Below are positions 53,778 to 62,669 of a stretch of 64,000 nt of DNA, piece after piece. The notes below the pieces were generated by a model. That model saw nothing but the letters and a program-made list of their open reading frames with translations. It was not told the origin of the DNA and ran no database searches. Source of the DNA: Candidatus Pacearchaeota archaeon (GTDB taxonomy: Archaea; Nanobdellota; Nanobdellia; Pacearchaeales; JAPDKA01). The position numbers and the translations under genes were made by a program. The stretch spans positions 16,784 through 80,783 of the forward strand of contig JAWBVE010000003.1 of the NCBI GenBank assembly GCA_038840695.1, read 5' to 3'. Position 1 is the stretch's first letter. Each line of letters begins with the position of its first letter.

Positions 53778-56700
53778 TTAATATCTGCGCCTTTTTGCAA
53801 TAACTAGTATGACTGATATAACAATTAATACTGCAAGCAAGCCGATCACTACGATGTGCCAATTGCCTTTGAGCCAGCCAATGACGCCGCCTGTGACTGG
53901 CACAACTGGAAGCCTATCGACGAACAAGCCAATGATTGAGGCTGAGTTTATTAATGCTATCACTTCCTTTTTCTCTTTGTCATGGACACTCTCTATTTTT
54001 TTCCATCCTCCGTCATAGCTATAGATAAACAAATTAGCCCCTTCAGCAAAGCCTTCATTGTATTTTATTATTAGCTCAACATCCTCACTAAACCTGACAT
54101 CTGGCGTAAACTTGTATGCTCTAACTAAATAAACATCTTGTGGCAATGTTGGAAGTAGCGTTAGGTCTGTAATTTTCTCAATCTTTATTTTGCTTGGGTC
54201 AACTTTGTCACCTTTTGAGTCTGTTATGTCTATGCCTGAGTTCAAAGTTATGATCAAAAGGCCATCGTCACTTTTAATTTGGATTGTTTTTGGTGTTGAT
54301 GTTGGCTTAGGTGTTGTGGCATTTCTTGGTGTCGGCGCGCAATCAAGAGCGCAGTTACTTGAATTTTCTCCAAGCCAGCTCTCGCATATTTTATTGCCAC
54401 AAACATAGGCAGGAGGAGCTGCGCCGCCACCGCCACCACCCTTGCCTTCTTCCTCCTCTTCTGTTGTTTCTTGTTTAACTGTAAAGCTAATGGTATTCCA
54501 AGCTGAAGTGCCGTGAACATCTGTAACTTTTACTTTGACAACATAATTGCCAGGATTACTATAAGTATGACTTGCTGTTGAATCATTTATTTTTTCCTCA
54601 TCAAAGGTTCCATCATTTGTCCAATCCCATTCATATGTTATATTATCAGTTGTATCAAATTGGCCACTTATTATTGCATTGAATAATACTGGCTTATCTT
54701 CCATATAAGGTGAAGAGCTCGTTATGCTAATTATGACTGAAGGTAAAGATGAACTATTACTTAGATTCAATGGCGTGTTATTTGATGCATTATATGTGAA
54801 GTTTTCTGTTGTGATTGTGCCATTGTAAAGTATGCCATCTGTTATGTTTGCATCTATTAGCGTCGCATTTGAAAGGTTTGTATTTACAATTGTTGAGTTT
54901 GTTGCAGTAACATTTGTAAGGTCGGAGTCTGTGACATTTGAATTTAAAAGCGTGCATGCTGTTAGCTCTGAACCTGTTGCATTTGAACCTGTAAGCACAC
55001 AATCTATTATCGTAGAGCTGTCCGCTGCTGAATCTGTGAGTGTTGAATTCTCTACTCTTGAATCTACTGCTGTTGAATTATCTAAAGTTGAATTGCTGAT
55101 TGTCGAGTTATCTGCTAAGGAATTTGTTAGGGTTGAGTTTGTGATCTCAGAATCTGTGACAATTGAGTTTGTCAAATTTGAGCTTTCAATTGTTGAGTTG
55201 CTGACATTCGAATAGGTGATATTTGCCTCGTTTATTATAGCATTATCAACATTGGAATATGTTATATTTGAATAGCTAACGTTGGAGTAAGTAACATTCG
55301 ATTGATATGTATATGAGTTTGTTAGGTTTGAACCAGTTAAGTTGTTAGTTGGCTGTGGTGGATCATAGATTCCATTAGCAAGATAGCAATTTGAAGCTAT
55401 TATGCCTTTTACTGTTGCATTGATTACCGTGCAATTAGTTAAAATTGAATTATTGATTATTGATGCTGTTGCATTTACTGCTGTTAGCCATGAATTTTCT
55501 ATTGTTGAATTATCTATATTTGAATCTAAGATTAAAATATCCTCACTAAAGTTACCCCCAGCTGATGCCTTAATAGTTGAGAAATTCTTTATTATCGAAT
55601 CATTTATGTTATCGAATATTCCCGTCGATTGATTTTCATAGAATGTGTCATTTACAGTCGAATTATAGATCCAACCACTGTCTGTGGTTGTGACGTTTGT
55701 TGTTGTTGATGTAGTATTGCTAATGCTTGTATTCGAATTGCTTGTCGCAATTACATCTATAACATAAATTCCAGGATTTGAATCACTAACAGTGAGACTA
55801 GCTATATAACTTTCTCCTTGATTTAACATAGGTGTTGTTGTTGCATTCAAAATTGCTTGATCAGCATTATTAATATTTTGCACTGTTAAATTAAAGCTGT
55901 CTGGAGTATCGCCGATGTTTGTTATGGTTATTGTATAAACGGCTGGCACAAGTAAGCCGACAGTTTGTGATGATGGAGTTGCTGTTATGCTTACACCATA
56001 GTCTGGAACCGGGTTAACTGTTACAATAATAGTGTCATTTGCGCTGTATTCGCCATCTGATGCTATAAATGTAACCTCTGCAATTCCATTCCAATTTGGG
56101 CTTGCTGTTATATTAATTCTTGTGCCAACAAATGTGACAATAACATTACTATTATTCGAAGTAAATGAATAAACTAGTGTTGCATTATCAACATCCGCAA
56201 AGTAATTTGTCATATCGAGGCTATCATTGTAACTATCTTCATCGAAAGTTACATCTGGGATTGACGTGATTAAGTAAGGAGCATCATTTACTGGGTTGAC
56301 TGTGATTGTAACAATCGCTGTTGCCTGTGCACCATCGCTGTCATTGATCTGATATGTAAAGGAGTCAGTTCCGTACCAATCCGCATTTGGAGTGTAATTG
56401 ATTTGATTGCCTATAATTACTGCAGTACCGTTTGTTGGTGTGGTAATTATCGAATCGAGAATGACTGGGCCTTCTACATCTGTATCATTGGCTAGTACAT
56501 CGATTAGTATTGAGACATCCTCATCTGTTATTGCACTATCATCATTGGCAATTGGTGCATCATTGACAGGATTGACTGTGATTGTAACAATCGCTGTATC
56601 AGTCAGTCCGCCTGAGTCAATGACTTGGTATGTAAATGTATCAATACCATAAAAGTTTGCAGCTGGTGTGTACTCAATTTGATTGCCTATAATTACTGCA

Positions 56701-59700
56701 GTACCGTTTGTTGGGCCAACTACTATACTATCTAGGGTTGGTGTGCCGTCCTCAATATCACTGTCATTGGCTAGTACATCGATTAGTATTGAGACATCCT
56801 CATCTGTTATTGCACTATCATCATTGGCAATTGGTGCATCATTGACAGGATTGACTATGATAGTGACAGTTGCAATATTTGAGTCAAAAGTTCCATCATT
56901 AGCAACATAGGTAAAAGAATCTGTTCCAAACCAATTGGTATTTGGAGTATAATTGAAAGAGCCATCTGAGTTTAAAGTTAGGATGCCATTTGAAACGTCT
57001 GTGACTAATAGAGCTGTTAATTGGTCACCATCAACATCGCTATCATTGGTTAGAATGCCTTGAGCTGCAATATTCAGAGGTTTATCCTCATCAGTTGTGT
57101 AGATATCATCAGCAGCAACTGGCGCATCATTTACTGGATTGACTGTTACTAAAATATCATCAGAGCCTGATGCACCGTCAGGATCTGTGGCTATAAATGT
57201 GACAGTTTCTGTACCGCTCCAGTTAGCAGGGGCTGTAAAGTTGACAGCATGGCTAACAGGATCGATTGTTATAATAATATTGATATTACCTGTAGTTATC
57301 CAGCTTAACTGATCTGGGCTATTGTCAACATCTGTTACATAATCATCTAAATCGAGCAGATCATAGAAGCTGTCCTCATCAAATGTTACATCTGGTATGC
57401 CTGTCACAACAGGGGCATCATTGATAGGTGTGACATTAATATTGACTGTTGCACTCACTATGCCACCATTACCATCATCAGCTTGAACAACACAGGTTGC
57501 AAGGCCATACCAATCTTGAACTGGGGTCATCTCAAGATTATTGCCAGCAATGTTGCAATCTACCTCAGCCGGATTTTCTCCTATTATGGAGAATGTTAGA
57601 GTATCTCCATCAACATCAGAGAAATATGGGCTAATATCTACTGATGTTGTGCCCGAATCCTCCGCTATTGCTTGATCTGGTATGCCTGTGGTTGTCGGCG
57701 CATCATTTGCAGGAGTTACATTAATTGTTACAATTGCAACATTACTATTGTCCATGCCATCGCTTGCTACATAGCTGAAGCTATCAATGCCGTTGAAGTT
57801 GGCATTTGGGGTGTATGTGAAGGAACCATCTTGGTTTAATGTTAGGACACCATGACTGACATCACTAACAAGAATTGCTATTAAAGCATCACTATCAGTA
57901 TCATTATCATTTGCAAGCACGCCCGCCGGAGCCGAGATGCTTAATAGTTCATCTTCATTAGTTTCATAATAATCATTATTTGCGATAGGCGCATTATTAA
58001 TTACAGTTGTTGTTATGTTTTGTGTCTCATTATAAAGGACATTTATTGTTGAATTGGCATAAACTTTCACTACATAATTTCCTGGCGTAGCTGAGCTTAC
58101 GTTTAGCTCAACAAGTTCGCTCTGACCTGCTTGCAATGTAATGCTATTTGTGCTTAGCCAGACATTCGCACCATTATAATTTATAACGCCAAGCGCAAAG
58201 TTATTCCAAACATTTCCAGTGTTTGTTATATTAATGATATAAGTTGCGTTGACATTTTTTGAAACTGTTCTTGCATAGCTATCACTCTCCAAGATAACAC
58301 CAAGTTGCAAATCATTACTAAATCCTCTCGTGCATTGCTGGAATTGCCAATCACTTAAAGTATTAGTATCTTGACCATTCGGCACTCTCGCCCAGCAAAG
58401 ATCATTGCCAAGAGTGTCAGCAAAGTTATAAGATACATCATCAACAACCTGATCGAAATTATCATATAAAGTCAAATTTTCACCAGCATTGTTTAATCTA
58501 TTGCCTGCATTTATAATCATATAATCATTAGCTCCAATAATACCACTAAGGGTAAACTTATTAGCATTCCCTCCGTCATAAATGTACCAGCCTGTTACGT
58601 CAACATCACTTGCTGCCGGGTTATAAAGTTCTATCCAATCTCCACTAGAGCTACCATTATTGCTCTCAAATTCATTGATCACGATGTGTGCTGGAGGCAA
58701 GAGAACTAGGAATGTATAATTGCTGCTTGCAAATCCATGATTGCCCCCATCATCAACACATTCAACATTCCAAGCATAAACGCCATTTTGCAAGCCTGTA
58801 AAAGTATAACTACTCGTGCTTCCATTCAAAACTTGCTGGTTTGCATTGACTTCCCATACCCCAGTCGTATTAGACCAAACATAACACATGAGCTCAGTAT
58901 CCATATTATCAGTTACACTATAGCTTACAGTAACATTGCCATCATTGTCAATACTGCCATTAGCCGGCGAGATTAAAGTTACGAGAGGCGCTTCTGTATC
59001 AGGAACATTAACACTAAACGTCACGCTTGCAGAACCAACATTTTGGCTTTCATCTCTTGCATAAATTACAAGATTATAAGCGCCATTAGCTAAATTTAAA
59101 GTAGTATTTTGGCAGCCAGGCAAGTTTTGAGGAGTTCCACCATTTAATACATACCAGCATGCCTCTATGCCATCATCGTCACTAACTGAATACTCTAGTT
59201 GGATTGGCAAGGAATCATAAGTTACGCCATCTTGAGGGCTGTAGATAATTACTTGGGGGGCAGCAGTATCTCTAACTATAATTGTCTTTGTCCTACTTCT
59301 TTCATCACCATCAGCGTCTCTTGCTGTTAAAGTGACTGTATATGTTCCCCTTACAGCATAAGCATGACTGACACTTTGGCCGCTTGCAGTGCTTCCATCA
59401 CCAAAATCCCAGCTAAAGCCTGAAATGCCATCAAATGCTGTCGCACTAGCAACAAAGTTCACAAGCTGGCCGACAGAAGGCGAGCTTGGGCTGAAGCTAA
59501 AGTCAACGTTTTCTGGAGCTGTATCTGTTACAGTTGCACTCCAACCAGCTCCGCTACTTGCTTTACCATCACTAACTATGACAGCAATATTGAAAACCTC
59601 ATTGCTATCAACATTAGGCACTTGCCAGATAAAGCTATTGCCGCTTGAGCTTTGCTGTTGGTTATTAACATACCAGCTATAACTTATGCTATCCCCATTA

Positions 59701-60242
59701 GGATCACTTGCAGTAATGCTAAAGCTCTGACTTAATGAGGCTTCACTAATGCTGAATGTGTTTTGGCTTGGGTTTTTGCTTGTTATTTGTGGTGGCTGAT
59801 TTGCTCCTTCAAAATAAATCCTTAATGTTTGGCTTGTTGCAGTTTTGCCGCTTTTATCTTGTGTTTTTGCATAGAAGCTATGCCATCCAGCAGTGGAATG
59901 TGTTATTATAGCTGTTAATGCACAAGTGCTGCTACCAGCACAATTTTTCTCATATTTCAAGCTTCCATCTTCAAAGAGTTTTATCCATCTAAGGCCAGAA
60001 TTATCGCCTGGATCAAATGCATTTGCAACCAGTATTGATTGTGAAAGGCTTGGATCATGAGAGGTTTCAGCTAGGGTAATTGTAGGTGCAAGATCAAAAG
60101 CAAAGCTAAAGCTCAATTGCATAATTCCAACTATCAAAATTGCCAAAAATGCTGCCAAGGCTTTTAGAGCATAGCCCAAGCTGCCCTGGCCCTTGCCGCT
60201 TTGCCTTTTTTTTGATCCTTTTTGGTTTTGCATGTTTTGCAT
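53778..60242 (-). CDS. Giant multidomain surface adhesin (PKD, Ig-like, lamin-tail-like, 7 cadherin-like repeats, beta-helix, TM anchor)
   Basis: Signal peptide, WDFGDG, VINEF..DWIELYNP, seven N(N/D)AP repeats, NST-rich solenoid, CGNKICE..NC..DC, C-terminal TM. Confidence 0.82.
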   Translation of the reverse strand: MQNMQNQKGSKKRQSGKGQGSLGYALKALAAFLAILIVGIMQLSFSFAFDLAPTITLAETSHDPSLSQSILVANAFDPGDNSGLRWIKLFEDGSLKYEKNCAGSSTCALTAIITHSTAGWHSFYAKTQDKSGKTATSQTLRIYFEGANQPPQITSKNPSQNTFSISEASLSQSFSITASDPNGDSISYSWYVNNQQQSSSGNSFIWQVPNVDSNEVFNIAVIVSDGKASSGAGWSATVTDTAPENVDFSFSPSSPSVGQLVNFVASATAFDGISGFSWDFGDGSTASGQSVSHAYAVRGTYTVTLTARDADGDERSRTKTIIVRDTAAPQVIIYSPQDGVTYDSLPIQLEYSVSDDDGIEACWYVLNGGTPQNLPGCQNTTLNLANGAYNLVIYARDESQNVGSASVTFSVNVPDTEAPLVTLISPANGSIDNDGNVTVSYSVTDNMDTELMCYVWSNTTGVWEVNANQQVLNGSTSSYTFTGLQNGVYAWNVECVDDGGNHGFASSNYTFLVLLPPAHIVINEFESNNGSSSGDWIELYNPAASDVDVTGWYIYDGGNANKFTLSGIIGANDYMIINAGNRLNNAGENLTLYDNFDQVVDDVSYNFADTLGNDLCWARVPNGQDTNTLSDWQFQQCTRGFSNDLQLGVILESDSYARTVSKNVNATYIINITNTGNVWNNFALGVINYNGANVWLSTNSITLQAGQSELVELNVSSATPGNYVVKVYANSTINVLYNETQNITTTVINNAPIANNDYYETNEDELLSISAPAGVLANDNDTDSDALIAILVSDVSHGVLTLNQDGSFTYTPNANFNGIDSFSYVASDGMDNSNVAIVTINVTPANDAPTTTGIPDQAIAEDSGTTSVDISPYFSDVDGDTLTFSIIGENPAEVDCNIAGNNLEMTPVQDWYGLATCVVQADDGNGGIVSATVNINVTPINDAPVVTGIPDVTFDEDSFYDLLDLDDYVTDVDNSPDQLSWITTGNINIIITIDPVSHAVNFTAPANWSGTETVTFIATDPDGASGSDDILVTVNPVNDAPVAADDIYTTDEDKPLNIAAQGILTNDSDVDGDQLTALLVTDVSNGILTLNSDGSFNYTPNTNWFGTDSFTYVANDGTFDSNIATVTIIVNPVNDAPIANDDSAITDEDVSILIDVLANDSDIEDGTPTLDSIVVGPTNGTAVIIGNQIEYTPAANFYGIDTFTYQVIDSGGLTDTAIVTITVNPVNDAPIANDDSAITDEDVSILIDVLANDTDVEGPVILDSIITTPTNGTAVIIGNQINYTPNADWYGTDSFTYQINDSDGAQATAIVTITVNPVNDAPYLITSIPDVTFDEDSYNDSLDMTNYFADVDNATLVYSFTSNNSNVIVTFVGTRINITASPNWNGIAEVTFIASDGEYSANDTIIVTVNPVPDYGVSITATPSSQTVGLLVPAVYTITITNIGDTPDSFNLTVQNINNADQAILNATTTPMLNQGESYIASLTVSDSNPGIYVIDVIATSNSNTSISNTTSTTTNVTTTDSGWIYNSTVNDTFYENQSTGIFDNINDSIIKNFSTIKASAGGNFSEDILILDSNIDNSTIENSWLTAVNATASIINNSILTNCTVINATVKGIIASNCYLANGIYDPPQPTNNLTGSNLTNSYTYQSNVTYSNVSYSNITYSNVDNAIINEANITYSNVSNSTIESSNLTNSIVTDSEITNSTLTNSLADNSTISNSTLDNSTAVDSRVENSTLTDSAADSSTIIDCVLTGSNATGSELTACTLLNSNVTDSDLTNVTATNSTIVNTNLSNATLIDANITDGILYNGTITTENFTYNASNNTPLNLSNSSSLPSVIISITSSSPYMEDKPVLFNAIISGQFDTTDNITYEWDWTNDGTFDEEKINDSTASHTYSNPGNYVVKVKVTDVHGTSAWNTISFTVKQETTEEEEEGKGGGGGGAAPPAYVCGNKICESWLGENSSNCALDCAPTPRNATTPKPTSTPKTIQIKSDDGLLIITLNSGIDITDSKGDKVDPSKIKIEKITDLTLLPTLPQDVYLVRAYKFTPDVRFSEDVELIIKYNEGFAEGANLFIYSYDGGWKKIESVHDKEKKEVIALINSASIIGLFVDRLPVVPVTGGVIGWLKGNWHIVVIGLLAVLIVISVILVIAKRRRY
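56485..56856. repeat. Recent intragenic domain duplication (279-bp period)
   Basis: 93 bp identical at 56485-56577 and 56764-56856. Confidence 0.9.
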
Positions 60243-60264: not shown

Positions 60265-62292
60265 TTAAAATTTAATTTCTACGCCAGTCGAAATTCCGAA
60301 ATTGGTTGAGCCGTCAATCTCACCACATCCAAAAATGTCAATGCTTTCATTAACACTCCCTCGACCGCAAAGCCCAATGCGATCAGCCCCATTTCTATCC
60401 AAAGTATAACTTCCTTTCACTCCAAATTTATCATTGCCGTAACCAACTGTAAAAGTATAAGCTGGCTTTTGGTCTTTTCCATAGCTAATATCGACTCCAC
60501 CATAGAAATTTCTGCCTTTAGTTAATAGCCTATATTCATTTAGCTTATTAAATTTTTCAGGGCTTATCTGATAATTTAAATAGAATGAATTTCTTGTTTC
60601 GATGTAGCTAGGGTTTACATACCACACAGAGGCTGTATTTTTTGAATCATCTTTTAAATAATTAAGCACTAGCGAATTTGGACCAAGCTTCTGGGAAAAG
60701 TAAAGAATGCCTTCAATATGATCAGTGCCCTTAATTTCTGGGCCTATGTTGACTACTGGAATAGCTTCCACGACTAATTTATCATTTTCATAGCCTAAGA
60801 CAGCTCCAATCGGAAAAACTCTATGTGTTCTCTTTGTTATTAGCTCATAATTTTCTGAAACATAATTTTGGCTTGAAAATGGCTGCCTCGAAACTTCTTC
60901 ACCATTAATATAAACTATGTTCTCTCCTTCGACTTTATTATTTATAGTTTGCACAAGACTTAATTTGTTTTTTGCCTTGCTTTCTTCTATGCCAAAGAGT
61001 AGGCCAAGCAAAAAGTGCCCTCCACCAACTTTAATTCCCTCATTCAAAAAAGTTCCTCTAAATTTTATAAAGCGCTCGTCTGTCTTGCTAAGTCCTTTGA
61101 TATTAACAAAGTTCTCTACTGTTCCCTGTGTTACACTGCATATCTCGAATGGATCGTTTTGACAAATTCTATCATAGAGTGTTTCTTGGCTCTCGCTATG
61201 ATAATTGATTATATCTTGGCTTGATTTTGTTGCAAGATTTAAATAGCCGCCCAAGCTAAAACCTTTCCCTAGCCAGCCTTTTGCATAAAGATAATAGGTG
61301 TTAGGACTCTCAGAGAAACTGTATTTTTCCCAGCGCTTAAAGTTAAGGCCAAAGCCGCCTTCAACATATTTTGAATTTAGGTCAAATGTTACTGTTGTAT
61401 CTTGCACTTGGCCAGATGTATTAAAAAGCTCTCCTGTTAGGCTAAGATTTTTATCAAGCTCAACGTTTCCAGTTAGGATGCCCTCAATATTGCCTTTACT
61501 ATCATAGCTAAGAATAGCCTCAACACTATTTTTTGAGCCTTCTGCTGGTCGCGCTTTTCCCTTTATTATTTTCTTTTCTTTTGGCTTTTGTTTTTCTGCT
61601 TCGGTTTCATAAGTTTCAAACTCTTTCTCTTCCTCCAAACCTCTCTCTTCCTTCAAACCTTCCTTTTCCTCAAAACCTCCCCCTCCCTTCAAACCTCTCT
61701 CTTCCTCCAAACCTTCCCCTCTCTTCCTTGCCTTTTCTTCTTCTTTTATTTCTTTTTCGAGCTCTTTAATTATTTTTTCTTCTATTGTTCCAGGCTTAGC
61801 TACCATAACTTCTTGTCTGGCTTGTTTGTCTTTAAATTTTATATCATAAGCTGGTGGATTAAGTAATTCCATAATATTAGTGTGATCCTCTTTAGGCAAG
61901 CTTTTTAAGTTTACTTGAATACTCCCTCCTCCTAAAACTGAAATTAAAGCTTCGCCCTCTCTAGGCGATGCAAAAAATCCAATTGCAGTAACAGGATTTG
62001 TTACACCAAAGCAATAGCTTAACGCCTTTTGAAGTTCTTCATCCTTAATTGTATAAACTGTGCCAGAAGCGAATTCAGATTTTTCAATGCTATTTTTGTA
62101 CTCTTCCTCCTTTCTTTGGCCCCAAAATTGCTCTGCTTTAGGGCATTCAGGGTTTGTTGCTGTAAGCTCTATCGTTGGAGATAGCCCAATGCTAAGAGCT
62201 AGAAGCATTGGCATCACTATTTTTTTTATTTTGCTTTTTTTGCTTTCTTTGCTTTCTAGGAGCTTTTCTAAATTTTCTAAAATTTTTGTCAT
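60265..62292 (-). CDS. Exported orphan protein with C-terminal beta-barrel-like domain
   Basis: Hydrophobic leader, acidic repeat linker, ~420 aa of amphipathic strands, ends STGVEIKF. Confidence 0.55.
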   Translation of the reverse strand: MTKILENLEKLLESKESKKSKIKKIVMPMLLALSIGLSPTIELTATNPECPKAEQFWGQRKEEEYKNSIEKSEFASGTVYTIKDEELQKALSYCFGVTNPVTAIGFFASPREGEALISVLGGGSIQVNLKSLPKEDHTNIMELLNPPAYDIKFKDKQARQEVMVAKPGTIEEKIIKELEKEIKEEEKARKRGEGLEEERGLKGGGGFEEKEGLKEERGLEEEKEFETYETEAEKQKPKEKKIIKGKARPAEGSKNSVEAILSYDSKGNIEGILTGNVELDKNLSLTGELFNTSGQVQDTTVTFDLNSKYVEGGFGLNFKRWEKYSFSESPNTYYLYAKGWLGKGFSLGGYLNLATKSSQDIINYHSESQETLYDRICQNDPFEICSVTQGTVENFVNIKGLSKTDERFIKFRGTFLNEGIKVGGGHFLLGLLFGIEESKAKNKLSLVQTINNKVEGENIVYINGEEVSRQPFSSQNYVSENYELITKRTHRVFPIGAVLGYENDKLVVEAIPVVNIGPEIKGTDHIEGILYFSQKLGPNSLVLNYLKDDSKNTASVWYVNPSYIETRNSFYLNYQISPEKFNKLNEYRLLTKGRNFYGGVDISYGKDQKPAYTFTVGYGNDKFGVKGSYTLDRNGADRIGLCGRGSVNESIDIFGCGEIDGSTNFGISTGVEIKF

Positions 62293-62393
62293 TTTAAAAT
62301 CATAAAAAAAAATTATATTTAAAAAGCTTTCGATAATTTTTTATTACTAAGTTATAACATCTTTTTTTGCATGGTTTAACAGTTTAGCATTGC

Positions 62394-62669
62394 TCAGATT
62401 TCACTCTCCTCCATGGCCCGCCTTATACTAATTAAAATAATAATGATCAAAATTATCATAAAAATGATGAGAAGGATAAAGAAAATCAAGAAACCTGTTG
62501 AATAATTAGCAGCATAGCCGGGCATGTTCACAACAGCTTTTCCTGTAAGCGTCGGTGAATTGAGACTTTTGAAAAAAATAAAAATTAGTACAAAAATCGA
62601 GATTAAGAGCAAAAGCACTAGGATTGCTCTTGGATAGCCCTCCTCGACTCTTTCTTCATTGTAATCCAT
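62394..62669 (-). CDS. Small two-TM membrane protein
   Basis: Two strongly hydrophobic helices around TLTGKAV. Confidence 0.65.
   Translation of the reverse strand: MDYNEERVEEGYPRAILVLLLLISIFVLIFIFFKSLNSPTLTGKAVVNMPGYAANYSTGFLIFFILLIIFMIILIIIILISIRRAMEESEI

Follow-up and report, generated by a model that had tools for sequence, protein, structure and literature searches.

An exported beta-rich protein family encoded upstream of giant adhesins in Pacearchaeota: a tentative candidate for a porin-like barrel

Membrane beta-barrels count as a hallmark feature of organelles and of the outer membrane of bacteria. In this study we analyzed a stretch of 64,000 nucleotides from the genome of a Candidatus Pacearchaeota archaeon (GenBank assembly GCA_038840695.1, contig JAWBVE010000003.1, positions 16,784 to 80,783), in the following called the window. 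It encodes an exported beta-rich protein of 675 amino acids, the target of this work, immediately in front of a giant adhesin. An initial annotation of the locus had proposed the smaller protein as an outer-membrane-type beta-barrel. The closest described systems are bacterial outer-membrane barrels, two-partner secretion systems together with inverse autotransporters, beta-pore-forming toxins and archaeal S-layer operons of the SlaA/SlaB type.

Bacterial outer-membrane barrels (porins, FadL, the barrels of TonB-dependent transporters, and PF13505) resemble the target in their Sec leader, in amphipathic strands of about 9-11 residues rich in Gly and aromatic residues, in short Gly/Asn/Asp turns and in a last strand which ends in or near an aromatic residue. 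The target differs from them in that it has no detectable sequence relation to them, no Omp85 and no known outer membrane, and its charge is higher. Moreover, its family carries a helical insert, and in its genus an N-terminal domain and a stalk are present. In two-partner secretion (FhaC/FhaB) and in inverse autotransporters (intimin/invasin) a barrel-type gene or domain likewise adjoins a giant adhesin with Ig-like repeats. However, Pfam searches revealed neither a POTRA or ShlB/FhaC-type match in the target nor a TPS domain in the adhesin, and the adhesin of the window carries a signal peptide itself, is anchored in the membrane at its C-terminus and has no outer membrane in its path. Beta-pore-forming toxins (aerolysin, alpha-haemolysin) are also exported beta-rich proteins, which enter a foreign membrane without an insertase; the target is larger, matches none of their families, and its conserved core does not correspond to one insertion hairpin. 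Finally, in SlaA/SlaB-type operons the gene of a huge and probably glycosylated surface protein is accompanied by that of a smaller partner protein. Here, in contrast, the large protein bears a membrane anchor and the partner is a fast-evolving beta-rich protein, and no sequence relation to the S-layer proteins was established.

The target gene was confirmed as a single open reading frame (ORF) by the ORF list and by its translation. Its parts and the adjoining adhesin gene are arranged in the window as follows.

62292 to 60265, minus strand: target ORF, 675 amino acids, C-terminus ...STGVEIKF followed by the stop codon.
62314..62323, minus strand: TATA-like box TTTAAATATA, about 26 nt 5' of the target ATG; sequence read directly.
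62152..62292, minus strand: Lys-rich N-terminus and hydrophobic stretch (residues 25-43), located by hydropathy scan.
61798..62151, minus strand: small N-terminal domain (residues ~48-165), with C50 and C94 conserved in the ortholog (alignments).
61543..61797, minus strand: low-complexity linker rich in E, K and G (residues 166-250; 31% E, 21% K, 13% G), which varies between strains.
60268..61542, minus strand: beta-rich C-terminal domain (residues 251-675), the barrel candidate, delimited by composition; the part common to the order-wide family.
60268..60303, minus strand: last amphipathic strand NFGISTGVEIKF with a beta-signal-like ending (translation, comparison of family C-termini).
53778..60242, minus strand: giant adhesin of 2154 amino acids with signal peptide, PKD, lamin-tail and Big_9/cadherin repeats, a pentapeptide region and a C-terminal transmembrane anchor (Pfam).

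Since the ORF, its parts, its ending and the adhesin neighbour were all re-read from the sequence, the descriptive part of the initial annotation is largely correct. This includes the ending STGVEIKF and the statement that the gene directly precedes the adhesin: a gap of only 22 nt separates the target stop codon from the ATG of the adhesin with its Big_9/cadherin and PKD repeats. The two genes are probably co-transcribed. The position of the TATA-like box suggests that the target has a promoter of its own and a leaderless or short-leader mRNA. The export-like leader that had been claimed was also recovered, as a Lys-rich N-terminus followed by the hydrophobic residues 25-43, which we read as a putative Sec-type signal peptide or signal anchor. 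The corresponding protein of another species of the genus (genome G001) starts with a canonical signal peptide, MTKLKRTLESIIFALGIALGSLGLTQG, and canonical signal peptides were found in most family members. A lipoprotein modified at the conserved Cys after the leader was considered and dropped because the residues preceding the Cys residues (TNPEC, NQSGC) form no lipobox. A hidden Markov model (HMM) of the small N-terminal domain yielded only noise against 300 genomes of the order, which leaves it an orphan domain.

The genome from which the window derives (G000) is assembled to 0.64 Mb in 10 contigs and is 85% complete. A protein 98% identical to the target is present at NCBI under the label Candidatus Pacearchaeota. 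Comparison of the target with the strain variant P0002 revealed that 11 of the 12 differences, among them two indels, fall into residues 137-205 (window 61677-61884, minus strand). This hot spot of variation corresponds to the end of the N-terminal domain and the E/K/G-rich linker. The remaining difference is located in the beta domain, which indicates constraint on this domain in the short term. Over longer distances the protein diverges rapidly. Its only clear homologue is the 620-residue protein of G001, which shows 39-42% identity and lies in the same gene order. Identity between the two proteins is highest in residues 382-660 (45-60%); it reaches its minimum over the initial 130 residues of the beta domain and over the last 16 residues of the protein. 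In the same pair of genomes the target is 42% identical, whereas an eIF2B-like neighbour and the N-terminal domain of the adhesin are each 68% identical. Thus, the target evolves faster than its neighbours. Taken together, the target is established as a real, exported protein which is under purifying selection and yet diverges fast.

Database searches with the target alone did not reach beyond the genus. A phmmer search of 1.84 billion representative proteins returned the target itself, a truncated copy of the G001 ortholog and a TPR protein; the latter (P0004) was rejected as a relative, its match being a spurious one to TPR repeats. Two word-indexed searches, a scan of metagenome loci and a phylum-wide HMM search likewise detected no relatives outside the genus, and no significant internal repeats were found in the target.

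Relatives became apparent when the adhesin was used as the point of reference. Its N-terminal 150 amino acids form a conserved domain. Of 301 genomes sampled from the order, 16 contain this domain, and 13 of the 16, G000 and G001 included, have an exported beta-rich ORF of 370-675 amino acids immediately upstream in the same orientation. We defined the adhesin-upstream family by exactly these features, namely an exported, beta-rich and co-oriented ORF of 370-675 amino acids directly before an adhesin with the conserved N-terminal domain. By position, the target, its G001 ortholog and the ORFs of 11 further genomes qualify as members. Two of these genomes, G002 and G003, represent two other genera of the taxonomic family to which the target genome belongs; both contain the eIF2B-like gene and carry the exported beta-rich ORF (491 and 512 amino acids, respectively) directly upstream of the adhesin.

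In order to relate the members by sequence a profile was used which represents the f4 subfamily, consisting of five of the upstream ORFs and P0008. The f4 profile matched G049 at 1e-5, G002 and G001 at 2e-4 each and G031 at 3e-3 (Z = 1000). A profile built without the genus of the target still scored 25 bits with G027 and 23 bits with G001, while the best decoy from a set of 370 own-genome ORFs and reversed sequences reached 5.9 bits. The target itself obtained only 3.3 bits with this genus-free profile. It is therefore joined to the family via G001, to which its orthology is clear (E about 1e-104). Direct comparison of the target with its positional analogues in G002 and G003 by BLASTP and hhalign was not significant; a shuffling test gave z = 3.1 against G002 and nothing against G003. 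For G003 and G005 family membership is based on gene position only.

Two motifs, separated by about 60-70 residues, make up the core of the family; they are located in the target as follows.

61123..61158, minus strand: core motif 1, NDPFEICSVTQG, aligned with '..ggliiiTkTnl..' of the f4 profile (hmmsearch to G001, ortholog alignment).
60874..60927, minus strand: core motif 2, GENIVYINGEEVSRQPFS, aligned with 'iNGqtiVniqgnnqtYvDTiPvss' of the f4 profile (hmmsearch; pairwise with the G002 protein).

The f4 alignment had no match in PDB or Pfam, and its four database relatives are all hypothetical proteins. Thus, the target is not an isolated orphan but belongs to an unannotated order-level family, newly recognized here, which is tied to a giant-adhesin operon. 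The family is restricted to a few families of one order.

Two members deserve separate mention. P0005 is identical to the G013 member (L065, 2293-3870) and carries the NCBI label 'candidate division WOR-3 bacterium' on a contig of 8.8 kb; because the identical sequence lies upstream of the adhesin in a Pacearchaeota genome, this label is probably due to mis-binning. The G043 member (L063, 2387-3682) comprises only 432 amino acids, ends inside the helical segment and is followed by a gap of 300 nt to the adhesin. It probably represents a frameshift or a pseudogene.

What kind of fold the common domain adopts was approached from its composition. Controls were 14 outer-membrane barrels of E. coli K-12, 18 soluble beta proteins and 17 other proteins. 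The 425-residue beta domain contains 11.3% Gly and 12.2% aromatic residues. Its density of hydrophobic-Gly-hydrophobic triplets is 2.1 per 100 residues, compared to 2.5 for the E. coli outer-membrane proteins and 0.7 for the adhesin. For all three properties the domain ranks between E. coli outer-membrane proteins and soluble beta proteins and well above the adhesin. Furthermore, N-x-S/T sequons occur 79 times in the adhesin where 45 are expected from composition, an excess which suggests heavy N-glycosylation of the adhesin. In the target there is no such enrichment (3 observed, 5.3 expected), and the same holds for the family.

The C-terminal strand was compared between the family members. 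In the initial annotation the ending STGVEIKF had been taken for the beta-signal recognized by Omp85 insertases. The ending indeed fits the pattern (polar-x-G-x-x-hydrophobic-x-aromatic at the C-terminus), and the target is the sole match among the 632 ORFs of at least 100 amino acids in the genome. However, from residue frequencies we estimate roughly one chance match in each proteome, and 7.9% of the ORFs in this AT-rich genome end in Phe. The match taken alone consequently carries little weight. The G001 ortholog is four residues longer and ends in ...GEIYLGFKAKW. The two proteins are least conserved over their last 16 residues. Alignment from the C-terminus reveals G-hydrophobic-x-hydrophobic-K-[F/W] in common. 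Conservation of the terminal Phe therefore holds within the genus insofar as an aromatic residue is kept (F in G000, W in G001), but family-wide only 5 of 14 members end in F or W, against a background of 13%. A more relaxed pattern recurs more often: 10 of 14 members carry an aromatic residue at one of their last three positions (background 30%), and counting roughly independent lineages gives 7 of 10 (estimated p about 0.01). The last strand is amphipathic in all members compared.

These observations can be accommodated by an exported, fast-evolving beta-rich protein which forms a porin-like, membrane-type barrel, acts together with the adhesin and inserts without Omp85. We consider this reading plausible but hold it tentatively, at somewhat less than an even chance. 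The Gly- and aromatic-rich amphipathic strands, the family-wide pattern of the terminal strand and the lack of sequon enrichment, unlike in the adhesin, were counted in its favour; barrel fold, membrane insertion, target membrane and function are what we infer from here on. The target would be exported by the Sec system. In this genus it would be kept near the cell by the E/K-rich stalk together with either the leader at its N-terminus or the small domain. The 425-residue C-terminal domain would then fold into a closed porin-like beta-barrel which enters a lipid layer without an Omp85 insertase. At the site of contact with another cell the barrel and the adhesin would cooperate, with the barrel serving as a pore or as a membrane foothold. 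The barrel might reside in the membrane of the partner or, alternatively, in the envelope of the cell itself, and delivery of the protein into a host membrane is possible.

Several results weigh against a barrel. The target, its subdomains, the ortholog and the f4 subfamily have no sequence match in Pfam, NCBIfam or PDB. The structure of the C-terminal domain was predicted by AlphaFold with a mean pLDDT of 33 for the single sequence and of 28 for a four-row alignment, and the models showed neither a barrel nor a sandwich. Both were of too poor quality to be used, also with regard to the two long hairpin extensions described in the initial annotation. Secondary structure in these low-confidence models was almost all beta, and a Foldseek search with the first of them returned meaningless matches with TM-scores near 0.1. 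A strand counter, in which a membrane-transfer scale was used, failed to separate E. coli outer-membrane proteins from fimbrial proteins. As barrels and fimbrial subunits score alike, it lends the barrel no support. A scan of column periodicity over-called strands and had no discriminating power, and hhalign comparisons of the family profiles with single E. coli outer-membrane and soluble controls gave noise; these three tests speak neither for nor against a barrel. Charged residues account for 22-28%, which is above the E. coli outer-membrane proteins. The family also contains, as read from the sequences, a helical segment of about 40 residues before the last five or six strands, and the terminal aromatic residue is not kept throughout: the G002 protein ends in K, those of G003 and G031 in N, and those of G039 and G006 in SD. 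Moreover, no Omp85 (PF01103) was detected in the target genome at its 85% completeness or in 40 relatives, while it was found in the bacterial control genomes; the search for an Omp85/BamA insertase, which the initial annotation had called for, was thus negative. No outer membrane is known for this archaeal group.

The strongest alternative is a soluble beta-rich surface protein that would serve the giant adhesin as a co-adhesin, as its tip or base, or as an assembly partner; the amphipathic strands of this protein would be arranged in sandwiches or in a solenoid. The barrel-like appearance would then be a by-product of beta-rich composition in an AT-rich genome. We regard this explanation as just as plausible as the barrel, again at somewhat less than an even chance. 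It agrees with the empty outcome of every homology and structure test for a barrel and with the fact that no insertase was found. Fimbrial subunits, which scored like outer-membrane proteins in the strand counter, also end in alternating aromatic strands (e.g., ...TFTLEYQ). The high charge content, the disulfide-type pairs of Cys residues and, in this genus, the stalk-like linker point in the same direction, as does the extreme divergence typical of exposed host-recognition proteins. On the other hand, an exposed protein of this kind would have to be reconciled with sequons that are not enriched, unlike those of the exposed adhesin next door. The Gly-rich strands and a hydrophobic-Gly-hydrophobic density above the soluble beta controls also speak against a soluble protein, as does the recurrence of the aromatic-ended last strand in the family.

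The barrel reading can be extended to a more specific proposal, in which the family represents lineage-specific, insertase-independent porin-like barrels, each encoded by the first gene of a giant-adhesin operon. After docking of the adhesin the barrel would enter the partner membrane and open a conduit for the uptake of metabolites. In this full form we consider the proposal unlikely.

A secreted protein similar to the beta-pore-forming toxins appears less likely still. Here a soluble monomer would oligomerise and each subunit would contribute one hairpin to a pore in the target cell. The target is indeed exported, beta-rich and encoded beside an adhesin, and such a protein requires no insertase. 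Residues 255-310 additionally contain Ser/Thr/Gly-rich alternating stretches which resemble hairpins. However, it is in this alternating region that the domain is least conserved between the orthologs, no Pfam match to aerolysin, ETX/MTX2, leukocidin or any other family was obtained at E values of up to 10, and there is no evidence for oligomerisation.

The explanation named first in the initial annotation, in which the archaeon itself would have a second (outer) membrane with the target as a porin, assembled in the manner of diderm bacteria, is highly improbable: the C-terminal pattern fits a bacterial beta-signal, an export leader is present and 5 of 61 genomes from this order contain ORFs that match OMP_b-brl (PF13505), two of them over the curated cut-off, but the absence of Omp85 from the target genome and from 40 relatives, the patchy distribution (13 of the 301 sampled genomes) and a divergence too fast for a core envelope component stand against it, the target genome has no match to PF13505, and the gene is tied to one adhesin operon and not to envelope biogenesis genes.

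The five PF13505 ORFs were located at L072 (G054), L073 (G022), L074 (G020), L075 (G050) and L076 (G040). Some of them have signal peptides, and one ends in ...VGCKF. They may stem from bacterial contigs that were mis-binned, or may have been truly acquired. No HMM link was detected between the adhesin-upstream family and these PF13505-type ORFs of the relatives.

Upstream of the target the following gene was found.

62394..62669, minus strand: protein of 91 amino acids with two hydrophobic segments (ORF list; Pfam gave only weak sub-threshold matches).

A similar two-segment ORF occupies the same position in G001 (L002, 3385-3819, minus strand). Upstream of the beta-rich gene G002 and G003 encode a small protein (104 and 123 amino acids, respectively) which contains a lipobox-like Cys, as well as a Cys-rich membrane protein of 686 and 865 amino acids, respectively (L041, 9752-12160; L042, 2919-5884). 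A Kazal domain was found in the Cys-rich protein of G002, the only one of the two that was scanned. In the window the 91-residue protein takes the place of these genes.

The literature search yielded no paper describing such porin-like proteins from DPANN archaea; a possible distant relative of PopA in Altiarchaeales has been mentioned (PMC12228718). Confirmation of the barrel fold would place a known kind of protein in an unexpected domain of life. If the barrel reading is true, the family would represent the first native membrane beta-barrels of archaea, and the view of such barrels as a bacterial and organellar hallmark would change. It would also offer a specific candidate molecule through which DPANN archaea with their reduced genomes could tap a partner cell. 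Sequence diversity in the enlarged family is now sufficient for a proper structure prediction. Even if the protein is soluble, in several families of Pacearchaeota the giant-adhesin operon is firmly linked to an unannotated and very fast-evolving protein family, and the adhesin-upstream family is a prime candidate for a host-recognition protein of these archaea.

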